Positions 1,190 through 4,137 are shown, counted from the stretch's first letter. The stretch: 4,213 nucleotides of DNA from a virus (IMGVR_UViG_2529292882_000010), one strand, 5' to 3'. Made by a program: numbers and translations. The notes: generated from the sequence alone by a model not told the origin.

Positions 1190-1609
1190 TTATGATGCGT
1201 TTTGTGCTTTCTTTTTACGGATTTCTTCGTAGATCATATTGTAATACTGTTTTTTCTCTTCAAGAGTTTTTAATAAGTTATCCGCTTCACTTTCTGGCAG
1301 TTCGTCTAAGAGATCTAAAAAAATACGTTGTCGTGGCGTTAGAACCCTTGTTTCATAATTGGAGGCTGTGTTCGTTGATGATGAAACGATACCATCCATC
1401 CATCCTCGGGGTAACCCAAAGGACTCTTCGATAATCTCCACCATATCATCAGCGATCCGTTTTTTTCCCTTTTTCCCCTCTGGGTACAACATTCTTGATA
1501 CATAAGAAGGCTCGCGACCGATTTTTCTGGCTACGTTAACCGCTTTACCATCGCATTTCTCATCACGAATTTTGATGAGTTGCTGTCGTCTAAATTCATA
1601 TTTGTCCAT
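1190..1609 (-). CDS. prophage immunity repressor, short Cro/CI-type HTH protein without S24 peptidase domain (RacR-like by position)
   Basis: Seen in sequence: 139-aa ORF divergent from a cro-like gene across a 100-bp operator-bearing intergenic region. The N-terminal segment KAVNVARKIGREPSYVSRMLY fits a helix-turn-helix, and the C-terminal region is charged and coiled-coil-like. At 139 aa it is too short to carry a LexA/CI-type autocleavage domain. No Shine-Dalgarno upstream of the ATG. Confidence 0.8.
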   Translation of the reverse strand: MDKYEFRRQQLIKIRDEKCDGKAVNVARKIGREPSYVSRMLYPEGKKGKKRIADDMVEIIEESFGLPRGWMDGIVSSSTNTASNYETRVLTPRQRIFLDLLDELPESEADNLLKTLEEKKQYYNMIYEEIRKKKAQNAS

Positions 1610-2423: not shown

Positions 2424-3371
2424 ATGAGCAGCAAGCTTCATGGTCTTGTCTGGGAAGGGTGTGCCTTCACCGGCATGATCTTATCCAGGGTGGCAGTAAT
2501 GGCTCGCCTTGCAGATTACAGCAATGACGAAGGTGTGTCATGGCCTGCAGTGGAGACCATTCGTCGTCAGATTGGGGCAAAGAGTGAATCAACGGTTAAA
2601 GCTGCGATAGCGGAACTGGAAAAGAACGGCTGGCTGACGAAGGAGGAACGTAAGGTCGGTGGGCGTAATGAAAGCAATATCTACCGTCTTAATGTGGAAA
2701 AACTCGAAGCAGCAGCAGCGGCGGCGCGTGAGGCATATAAACCGAAAAGAAAAATTAGCCAGGCAAAAAATGACCCGTCAAATATTGCCCCCTCAACGGT
2801 TGACCCCTCAAATTTTGATGGATCAACCATTGATAAAAAACAGCCGGATAGGGGGGCGATGGTTGGCCCCGATCCGTCAGTATTAAAACCTGATCCGTCA
2901 GATAAAAGATCTTTTCGTCCGGAAGCTTCGCAACCGGACTCGCAGACGGCTGAACAGGATTTTTTAACCCGACACCCTGACGCTGTTGTGTTCAGTGCGA
3001 AAAAACGCCAGTGGGGTAGCCAGGAAGATTTAGCGTGTGCGCAGTGGATCTGGGGACGAATCGTGAGTCTTTACGAACAGGCTGCCAGCGATGATGGCGA
3101 GATCACGCGACCGAAAGCCCCCAACTGGACCGCATGGGCTAATGACGTGCGCACAATGCGGATGCTGGATGGCAGAACTCACAGACAAATTTGCGAAATG
3201 TTTGGTCGGGTACAGCGGGATCCATTCTGGGTAAAAAACGTCATGAGTCCGTCAAAGCTTCGTGAAAAATGGGATGAGCTGGTTATTCGTCTGGGGCGTT
3301 CGCCTGTACAGCGTTGCGTGAATCACATTTCTGAACCGGATACCGAAATTCCGCCGGGCTTCAGGGGGTAA
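2424..3371 (+). CDS. phage replication initiation protein (N-terminal winged-helix DNA-binding domain, repeat-bearing linker, conserved Trp-rich C-terminal domain)
   Basis: Seen in sequence: 315-aa ORF, ATG at 2424 with GGAG at 6 nt spacing. The N-terminal region (LADYSNDEGVSWPAVETIRRQIGAKSESTVKAAIAELEKNGWL) matches the pattern of HTH-type replication initiator N-domains. The central linker carries four DPS repeats encoded by direct DNA repeats. The C-terminal region is Trp-rich and resembles the conserved C-terminal domain seen on phage replisome-organiser proteins. Domain names are from memory. Confidence 0.8.
   Translation: MSSKLHGLVWEGCAFTGMILSRVAVMARLADYSNDEGVSWPAVETIRRQIGAKSESTVKAAIAELEKNGWLTKEERKVGGRNESNIYRLNVEKLEAAAAAAREAYKPKRKISQAKNDPSNIAPSTVDPSNFDGSTIDKKQPDRGAMVGPDPSVLKPDPSDKRSFRPEASQPDSQTAEQDFLTRHPDAVVFSAKKRQWGSQEDLACAQWIWGRIVSLYEQAASDDGEITRPKAPNWTAWANDVRTMRMLDGRTHRQICEMFGRVQRDPFWVKNVMSPSKLREKWDELVIRLGRSPVQRCVNHISEPDTEIPPGFRG
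2771..2915 (+). repeat. iteron array inside the initiator gene: candidate phage origin of replication
   Basis: Seen in sequence: four direct repeats of TGAYCCNTCA at 2771-2780, 2801-2810, 2870-2879 (CGATCCGTCA) and 2891-2900, with a degenerate copy near 2818-2828. Spacings are about 30, 70 and 20 bp. Followed by the AT-rich palindrome AAAAGATCTTTT (2904-2915). Four GATC sites fall within about 90 bp (2821, 2871, 2892, 2908). Established parallel: the lambda origin lies inside gene O as iterons plus an AT-rich segment. Confidence 0.6.
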
Positions 3372-3409: not shown

Positions 3410-3835
3410 TTGTGGCAAAAGTATTTACACAAGAAGAGCGGGAAAAAAATTAAGGGGCAGATTGTTGAACTTGTACGTCTGAGCGGTCGCGAGACGTTAC
3501 GGCAACTGGAAGCGAAAACAGGTGCGACAAGATATCTGATGAGTGTTCTCGCCAGAGAGCTGGTTGCCAGTGGCGATGTATACAATTCTGGCTACGGGTT
3601 ATTTCCGTCTGAACAGGCTCGTAAGGACTGGCAAAACGCCCGCAAAAAACTATCGAGGGCAAAGGCGAAGAAACCGGTTGTGGTTGATCCGGACCTTATC
3701 TGGTCATTACCAGACGGAGAAATACGCCGCTACGACAGGAGCCAGAACATAATCTGTCGCGAGTGCCGGAAGAGTGAGGTTATGCAGCGAGTGCTGGCGT
3801 TTTATCAGGGTAATTTTCAGGAGGTGATGGCGTGA
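3410..3835 (+). CDS. hypothetical phage protein (141 aa) with a predicted winged-helix-like N-terminal segment
   Basis: Seen in sequence: the only open frame here. It must start at TTG 3410, because there is no in-frame ATG or GTG before residue 44 and the N-terminal segment (IVELVRLSGRETLRQLEAKTGATRYLMSVLARELV) looks like a real HTH or winged-helix fold. The basic middle and C-terminal CxxC are noted. The stop TGA overlaps the next start as GTGA. Family not recognised. Confidence 0.65.
   Translation: MWQKYLHKKSGKKIKGQIVELVRLSGRETLRQLEAKTGATRYLMSVLARELVASGDVYNSGYGLFPSEQARKDWQNARKKLSRAKAKKPVVVDPDLIWSLPDGEIRRYDRSQNIICRECRKSEVMQRVLAFYQGNFQEVMA
3809..3824 (+). promoter_or_regulatory. copy 2 of repeated RBS-containing junction module GGTAATTTTCAGGAGG
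   Basis: Seen in sequence: identical 16-mer at the 3' end of CDS 3410..3835, where it encodes GNFQE. AGGAGG (3819-3824) lies 7 nt upstream of the GTG start at 3832. Confidence 0.65.
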
Positions 3836-4137
3836 GGGTGAGAGTCTATATCGCCGGTCCAATGACCGGGTATAAAAATTTCAACCGTGAGGCGTTCCAC
3901 AATGCGGAAGAGGAACTGAAACGGGAAGGGCATACAGTCTTAAACCCGGCAGTACTTCCGGACGGGCTGACACAGCCACACTACATGGATATTTGCATGG
4001 CAATGATTCGTTGTGTGGATGCGATTTACATGCTGAAAGGCTGGCAGCGGTCAGCAGGTGCTAAGGCAGAACTGGCACTGGCGGAGAAGCTGGGGCATGC
4101 AGTTATTTTTCAGGAGGCAACCAGTGAGCAACATTAA
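3832..4137 (+). CDS. DUF4406-family protein (nucleoside 2-deoxyribosyltransferase-like fold)
   Basis: Seen in sequence: 101-aa ORF with GTG start overlapping the upstream stop (GTGA). The N-terminal motif VYIAGPMTG, then NPA, then GWQRSAGAKAE match my recollection of the DUF4406 family common in enterobacterial prophages. Family name from memory. Confidence 0.75.
   Translation: MRVRVYIAGPMTGYKNFNREAFHNAEEELKREGHTVLNPAVLPDGLTQPHYMDICMAMIRCVDAIYMLKGWQRSAGAKAELALAEKLGHAVIFQEATSEQH
4102..4117 (+). promoter_or_regulatory. copy 3 (variant) of the junction module: GTTATTTTTCAGGAGG
   Basis: Seen in sequence: TTTTCAGGAGG at 4107-4117 inside the 3' end of the DUF4406 gene, where it encodes IFQEA. AGGAGG lies 6 nt upstream of GTG at 4124. 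Confidence 0.6.

Follow-up and report, generated by a model that had tools for sequence, protein, structure and literature searches.

Where does replication start in a lambdoid prophage that encodes an O-like initiator and no P-like helicase loader? We examined this question for a 4,213-nt stretch of viral DNA (IMGVR_UViG_2529292882_000010; here, the window), which represents the immunity and replication region of a lambdoid (Rac/mEp460-like) Escherichia coli prophage. Within its initiator gene lies a cluster of short repeats, and a first-pass annotation of the DNA had proposed that this cluster, at positions 2771-2915, is an origin of replication. Our comparisons with related loci lead us to assign a probability of roughly 0.78 to the reading that positions 2771-2916 are the replication origin of this prophage, with the layout of the lambda origin built from unrelated parts. 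The initiator gene contains the following features.

2424-3371, plus strand: initiator gene, an open reading frame (ORF) for an O-like replication initiation protein of 315 amino acids (aa); matches PHROG 391, "replication initiation O-like" (E 3.5e-112)
2424-2735, plus strand: winged-helix DNA-binding N-domain (aa 1-104); Pfam HTH_36, PF13730 (E 5.7e-8)
2742-2939, plus strand: predicted disordered linker (aa 107-172), which holds all the repeats; predicted local distance difference test (pLDDT) score <50 in the AlphaFold2 (AF2) model
2771-2825: class A array, four 15-bp tandem units with a TGA-N4-TCA core
2793-2833: imperfect 41-bp palindrome of head-to-head class A half-sites, TCAACGGTTGACCCCTCAAA / TTTGATGGATCAACCATTGA; arms 85% complementary, with 1 nt between them
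2851-2869: G+C-rich spacer with a degenerate inverted pair, GGGGGCGATGGTTGGCCCC (GGGGTCAATGGTTGACCCC in close relatives), from an anchored homologue alignment
2870-2900: class B, two GATCCGTCAG units, contained in CCCGATCCGTCAG (2868-2880) and CCTGATCCGTCAG (2889-2901), with one GATC each
2876-2916: least stable 40-bp duplex of the initiator gene in a nearest-neighbour profile, made up of the class B block and an A-run; candidate unwinding element
2904-2915: perfect palindrome AAAAGATCTTTT
2940-3293, plus strand: helical C-domain (aa 173-290), AF2 pLDDT 85-91; homologous to the C-domains of lambda O and phi80 gp15
3306-3368, plus strand: DnaT-like C-terminal tail VQRCVNHISEPDTEIPPGFRG, corresponding to the last 21 residues of E. 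coli DnaT

The motif TGAYCCNTCA matches the window six times with at most one mismatch, compared to 1.74 matches expected (0 of 200 shuffles reached six), and all six matches lie inside 130 bp (2771-2900). Every sequence element named in the first-pass annotation is present where it had been placed, including four iterons, which are exact at 2771, 2801, and 2891 and have one mismatch at 2870 (CGATCCGTCA). Two further copies, at 2786 (TGCCCCCTCA) and, inverted, at 2816 (TGATGGATCA), bring the total to six, and the six fall into two classes. The cores of class A are TGACCCGTCA (2771), TGCCCCCTCA (2786), TGACCCCTCA (2801), and the inverted TGATGGATCA (2816); Tandem Repeats Finder independently reported a 15-bp array at 2771-2818 with the consensus TGACCCCTCAAATAT. 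Spacing at helical-turn multiples, also part of the annotation, did not hold up: class A has a strict 15-bp period, and the distance between the class B copies is 21 bp here and among homologues 24 bp (n = 50), 18 bp (n = 7), or 21 bp (n = 2). The consensus across the family is (A/G)A(A/T)TC-TGAC-S-C-R-TCA-AAATC for class A and GATCCRTCAG(T)AA for class B. Along the gene, the order is iterons, G+C-rich spacer, low-stability block, and C-domain coding region, a succession that parallels lambda.

The same bases encode both the repeats and the disordered linker. Positions 2771-2901 correspond to aa 116-159, between an N-domain that ends near aa 104 and a region of C-domain homology that begins at aa 161, so the annotation was right to place the repeats in the linker; the four DPS motifs that it listed are present in translation (D117-S119, D127-S129, D150-S152, and D157-S159). 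In the AF2 model, helices and a beta-hairpin wing make up the N-domain (aa 3-104), and the C-terminal tail (aa 294-315) is disordered. HTH_36 is the only Pfam match of the initiator, with no match to Phage_rep_O. The top Foldseek matches of the N-domain in the PDB were generic winged helix-turn-helix proteins of the MarR/ArsR/PadR type, with weak E-values near 5e-3, and this search returned no initiator structure as a close match. In tblastn searches, lambda O aligned to the window initiator from aa 161 onward only (37.5% identity between aa 161-288 and the lambda O C-domain, E 5e-19), and the C-domain was 36.3% identical to the product of phi80 gene 15. With its foreign HTH_36 N-domain joined to a C-domain of the lambda type, the initiator is a mosaic O-like protein.

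We determined which part of the initiator the repeats accompany in a sample of 79 loci from one-genome-per-species contigs, two annotated records, and the window. Genes were called N-domain positive at ≥50% identity and array positive at ≥4 motif matches within 200 bp. The annotation had staked its proposal on the presence of the repeats in close homologues, and there they were: 60 of the 62 genes with the window's N-domain carry the array. It was detected in 21 of 22 genes that combine this N-domain with a lambda-O-like C-domain and in 39 of 40 that combine it with a different C-domain (Phg_2220_C in the one that was scanned). None of 16 genes with another or distantly related N-domain (15 with the window's C-domain type and 1 more distant) carries the array; these have 0 to 3 matches each, and the motif background elsewhere in the loci is ~0.06 matches per 200 bp. 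The genera sampled include Escherichia, Edwardsiella, Erwinia, Morganella, Providencia, Proteus, Yersinia, Pantoea, Kluyvera, and others. Because the array is present with this N-domain whatever the C-domain, and absent with other N-domains, the comparison indicates that it is specific to the type of DNA-binding N-domain. One of the two exceptions among the 62 genes is truncated at aa 100, and the other has variant cores (TGAACGTTCA). Four further loci with 5 to 6 matches fell outside the N-domain-positive count, three because of truncated N-domains and one with a 40%-identical N-domain of the same family.

Loci with other N-domains bear different arrays of their own at the same position in the gene. 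The mEp460-type array comprises five 23-bp units of CATCGGGTCAAAATGACACGATG, then three 12-bp A+T-rich units of TACAGAGAATAC, and another type comprises 4 to 7 units of 22-24 bp. Three loci that pair the window's C-domain with another N-domain (L002, 4169-4340; L010, 2713-2870; and L039, 2770-2907) carry five 23-bp CATCGGGTCAAAATGACACGATG units followed by two or three 12-bp TACAGAGAATAC-like units. Arrays of the CATCGGGTCAAAATGACACGATG/TACAGAGAATAC kind presumably represent another uncharacterised origin type. As a control, the same repeat scan recovered the four lambda iterons and the phi80 repeats, each just upstream of the C-domain homology.

Megablast alignments between the initiator gene and other E. 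coli prophages and phages begin at query positions 448 and 481; in the window these are nt 2871 and 2904, which coincide exactly with class B. These alignments point to a mosaic joint at nt 2871/2904, where cassettes consisting of an N-domain plus its iterons appear to have been swapped onto a common C-domain. Among close E. coli relatives, the length of the linker changes in whole 5-aa units. Two of these relatives, P0004 and P0016, lack one of the pair of class B repeats owing to a deletion of 7 aa (GPDPSDKRS), and others differ by the gain or loss of one or two class A units of 15 bp. Such variants are ready-made natural mutants of the putative origin.

Codon usage in the linker shows that the repeats are under selection as DNA, and the comparison of DNA and amino acid conservation that the annotation had suggested gave a positive result. 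In the [DE][PG]S motifs of the linker, serine is encoded by TCA in 204 of 217 cases (94%), compared to 472 of 1933 (24%) elsewhere in the same genes. The codon before the serine motif has T as its third base in 122 of 217 cases, against a background of 25%, whatever the amino acid encoded. Considering columns in which ≥85% of the sequences have the same degenerate amino acid, the share of the commonest codon was 0.91 in the linker (median 0.98, 13 columns) versus 0.52 in the N-domain (54 columns). In the first class B repeat, the codons GAT, CCG, TCA, and GTA are unchanged in 93-100% of sequences. In class A, TGA and TCA are fixed and the four bases between them vary, so that the middle residue may be P, A, T, V, G, R, or H; where the site flips strand, NNGG takes the place of CCNN and G that of P. 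Across 62 genes from many genera, both the 15-bp register and the core TGA-N4-TCA are kept, and the site may be centred on either strand. This pattern is the mark of a DNA site superimposed on a coding region that is disordered and tolerant of change, and the TCA bias and codon share back the earlier suggestion that one stretch of DNA serves as both site array and protein linker. An array of binding sites over a coding linker would be a clean natural case of dual coding, one whose footprint at synonymous sites can be measured.

The class B block coincides with low duplex stability in related genes as well: the 40-mer of lowest stability in the gene begins 4-10 nt past the first class B repeat (z about +3) in 49 of 58 homologues. 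In the window, the stretch 2876-2916 has an A+T content of only ~67%, and the class B repeats break it up. The annotation had linked the density of Dam sites here to an unwinding or methylation-sensitive element. The window contains 17 GATC sites, compared to 15.9 expected, and four GATC sites fall within 91 bp in 6% of random placements (P about 0.06), which means that the cluster alone is not significant; with only two of the four conserved, we rejected GATC enrichment. The part of the idea that stands concerns the two class B sites. GATC is present in all 60 first copies and in 54 of the 60 second copies (114 of 120 in total), and two Dam sites are therefore a conserved feature of the low-stability block. 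Class A units mostly have TGAC instead, with C at unit position 8 in 148 of 213 copies. The AAAAGATCTTTT palindrome that follows the last iteron is perfect in the window, but it is perfect in only 2 of 60 homologues, most of which have AAAAAACCTTCTTG; we rejected it as a functional element, and it is probably incidental.

In many relatives, a gene for an adenine methyltransferase lies directly downstream of the initiator gene or one gene further. It encodes Dam (PF05869) in loci L028, L041, L050, L051, L054, and L057 and MT-A70 in L053 and L060, and gene 45 of L085 is a further case. The relatives with a methyltransferase gene keep the two GATC sites in their repeats, and no such gene is visible in the window phage.

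An origin inside the initiator gene is classical lambda biology, and for this reason the existence of one here is expected rather than surprising. The origins of lambda (gene O), phi80 (gene 15), 82, P22, and the Shiga toxin (Stx) phages lie within the initiator gene between the N- and C-domains, as the repeats do in the window, and this location has been proven experimentally for lambdoid origins (PMC7466680). By alignment, the window repeats occupy the place of the lambda and phi80 iterons: they end at nt 2901 and the C-domain homology starts at nt 2904 (aa 161), and the lambda iterons similarly end ~30 nt before the homology. Other likenesses are short sites with internal dyad symmetry, least stable DNA downstream of them, a homologous C-domain, and a repeat number that varies among relatives, as it does between lambda with 4 iterons and the Stx phages with 6 (PMC7466680). 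On the other side, the window N-domain is HTH_36 rather than Phage_rep_O, the iteron sequence is unrelated, the low-stability block contains a second, GATC-bearing repeat class, the A+T-rich tract is much weaker, and no P gene follows the initiator. The iterons of lambda and phi80 are spaced 20-24 bp apart; class A has a spacing of 15 bp and class B one of 18-24 bp. Set against lambda iterons (~19 bp long, at 20-24 bp spacing), the window sites share the dyad symmetry and lack the period. Overall, the comparison strongly favors the analogy with the lambda origin, with unrelated iterons, that the annotation had drawn.

A mechanism consistent with this layout would begin with the winged-helix N-domain binding to the near-palindromic TGA-N4-TCA cores of class A, probably as dimers, and assembling a nucleoprotein complex similar to the O-some. 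This complex may strain the adjoining class B block (2868-2916), the least stable duplex of the gene with its two conserved GATCCGTCAG units, and the block would then open. The C-domain and the C-terminal tail might bring in the host helicase. Given that there is no gene for a P-like loader, recruitment would probably be direct through host factors, perhaps via the DnaT-like tail.

Several observations weigh against an origin at these positions. With a period of 15 bp, neighbouring class A sites lie on nearly opposite faces of the helix, unlike those of lambda, phi80, and other arrays (20-24 bp). The A+T-rich stretch is short and modest (~67% over 30 bp), and intergenic regions of the window and the repressor gene are less stable than 2876-2916. 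Our counts come from 58 to 62 homologues that are mutually related and are not independent events. The helicase-loading step has no P or DnaC partner, and lambdoid phages that encode only an O homologue (O-only phages) have been without experimental study so far (PMC12315714). The weak A+T-rich element would also fit sites at which the initiator binds for autoregulation, handcuffing copy control, or exclusion of related phages while replication starts elsewhere. The association with the N-domain and the selection at the DNA level indicate that the sites matter as DNA, not that replication starts there, and iteron plasmids, whose sites function in initiation as well as in control (PMC3401445), provide a precedent. 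We nevertheless consider such a purely regulatory role unlikely. The sites are in the position of the proven lambda and phi80 origins, directly ahead of the homologous C-domain; in 49 of 58 homologues they adjoin the part of the gene that is least stable; no second array was found in 12.9 kb of a near-identical prophage (L001); and a location ~350 nt inside a coding sequence would be unusual for an operator.

It is less probable still that the conserved DNA is read by another factor, such as Dam/SeqA at the two GATC sites, or that it is a recombination hotspot for the exchange of N- and C-domain modules. The retention of GATC in class B (60/60 and 54/60), the Dam or MT-A70 genes directly after the initiator in many relatives, and the mosaic breakpoints at nt 2871 and 2904, exactly at class B, are in line with explanations of this kind. 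Class A, however, mostly lacks GATC (C at position 8 in 148/213) yet strictly tracks the N-domain type, the GATC spacing of 18, 21, or 24 bp corresponds to no single helical phase, and a mosaic joint at a domain boundary is expected anyway. The region is translated, its linker is predicted to be disordered, and whole 5-aa units are gained and lost, all of which would suit a low-complexity DPS linker that arose by replication slippage and has no role as DNA. We give this very little credence, because the codon and N-domain-association data already contradict it: synonymous sites are near-invariant across genera (0.91 versus 0.52 in the N-domain), serine is encoded by TCA in 94% of motif copies versus 24% elsewhere, the central amino acid is free, with P and G interchanged exactly as a strand flip predicts, and the repeats vanish with a different N-domain though the linker and the C-domain remain. 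Equally improbable is an RNA structure or internal promoter in the initiator mRNA as the source of the conservation. The palindromic sites do confer some foldability (z = -1.77), but 11 of 200 shuffles fold at least as well. A scan of the whole initiator gene yielded no site resembling a sigma-70 promoter, and most relatives have TCTGAC where the window's subgroup has TTGAC; we rejected both the promoter and the RNA structure. A lambda-type origin built from unrelated parts, in a little-studied group of O-only phages, is the most likely interpretation of the locus.

The O-only module was found in 34 of 314 lambdoid phages of Enterobacterales, and its replication has been described as "not yet understood" (PMC12315714, Genome Res 2025); the same paper defines no origin for these phages. 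The window has the composition of this module, with an O homologue and no gene for a helicase or helicase loader. Phage LLS, the type phage of the O-only class, encodes in gene 44 an initiator whose N-domain is 49.7% identical to that of the window. The LLS gene also carries a class A array with the 15-bp period, the two class B repeats, and the tail IPEGFRG, whereas its C-domain differs from the window's and is of the type that was scanned as Phg_2220_C in L041. Membership in the O-only class raises the interest of the locus, as does a testable route to helicase recruitment without a loader. A defined cis site with two repeat classes, together with the N-domain that would read it, offers a clonable substrate for the study of loader-free replication start.

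No P-like or DnaC-like gene follows the initiator in the window, where the next genes are DUF977/Ren-like and DUF4406. The tail of the initiator, which ends in SEPDTEIPPGFRG (IPPGFRG), matches the DnaT structures PDB 2ru8, 6aep, and 9zbt (whole-sequence E 0.013-0.034). Against the DnaT model NF002770 of NCBIfam, the initiator scored 16.7 bits, compared to a cut-off of 201, and only its last 20 residues matched; given this score and the restriction of the match to the tail, we rejected an identification of the initiator as DnaT (primosomal protein I). The label "Primosomal protein I" on relatives is due to the tail match alone. In the related loci L004-L082, the type of tail tracks the presence or absence of a downstream loader gene. 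Tails of the form W[ED][DNQ][VT]L are accompanied by a lambda-P-like gene downstream in 9 of 9 cases, and four checked ORFs adjoining initiators with P-type tails belong to PF06992. Tails of the form IP.GFRG occur without a P or DnaC homologue within 2.5 kb downstream in 49 of 52 cases. Lambda O and phi80 gp15, both of which have a P gene, end in NTDW(I/A)YGV. The GFRG tail is found on C-domains of two unrelated kinds and may thus be a portable module.

Removal of residues 154-179 from DnaT weakens its binding to single-stranded DNA and its cooperativity (PMC4132743), and the last ~20 residues of DnaT are not addressed in PMC13377028. We therefore put mimicry of DnaT forward as a hypothesis rather than a result. 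It is conceivable, although we would not expect it to hold in full, that O-only phages have a two-part origin, with 15-bp phased palindromic iterons and two Dam-site repeats in an unwinding block, in which P is replaced by a peptide copied from DnaT that plugs into host helicase loading. The association between tail type and P gene provides a specific and testable candidate for the missing loading step.

Plasmid iterons are usually 17-22 bp long, lie in a single orientation outside the rep gene, and have DnaA boxes nearby. Iteron plasmids combine a winged-helix initiator with tandem short sites beside an unwinding element, possibly with repeats inside that element (PMC4081077). The window resembles the systems of RepA, RepE, pi, and TrfA in its winged-helix initiator and in its tandem short sites next to a candidate unwinding element. 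Its sites differ from those of the plasmids in lying inside the gene, flipping orientation, and showing no excess of DnaA boxes, and the locus is not of the iteron-plasmid type. We detected one DnaA box at one mismatch, compared to 0.93 expected, and rejected DnaA boxes as a feature of the region. With the Rac prophage of E. coli K-12, the site of oriJ, the window shares a RacR-like repressor followed by YdaS-like and YdaT-like genes and then an initiator. We rejected identity with oriJ, since the K-12 initiator YdaU is a DUF1376 protein and is followed by the DnaC-like YdaV; Rac has a different replication module, and the oriJ literature therefore does not describe the window site. The literature that we consulted on iteron sequences and on the origins of SfII, SfIV, and phiP27 contains no description of this origin.

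The remaining genes of the window are as follows.

1190-1609, minus strand: repressor gene
1710-1991: Cro/YdaS-like gene
1975-2400: CII/YdaT-like gene
3410-3835: DUF977/LygF gene; PHROG 142, "Ren-like exclusion protein"
3832-4137: DUF4406 gene

The DUF977/LygF gene lies directly after the initiator gene, in the slot that ren occupies after O-P in lambda. With a Ren-like gene in this slot, the order of the module reads O-ren, with P missing. E. coli P13-6 has a prophage with a 98% identical copy of the region, bordered by dicB/relBE on one side and by nin-like, rusA, and Q genes on the other. A match that spans ≥80% of the initiator gene occurs in 1515 of 5426 complete E. coli genomes. Likely operators for the repressor lie on both sides of its gene, at 1107-1119, 1132-1144, 1630-1642, and 1668-1680. 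To the left of the gene, ATACCCATGGGTA occurs twice; to the right, the divergent promoter region contains TTACCTGTGGGTA and a TACCGCAAGGTAA-like site.

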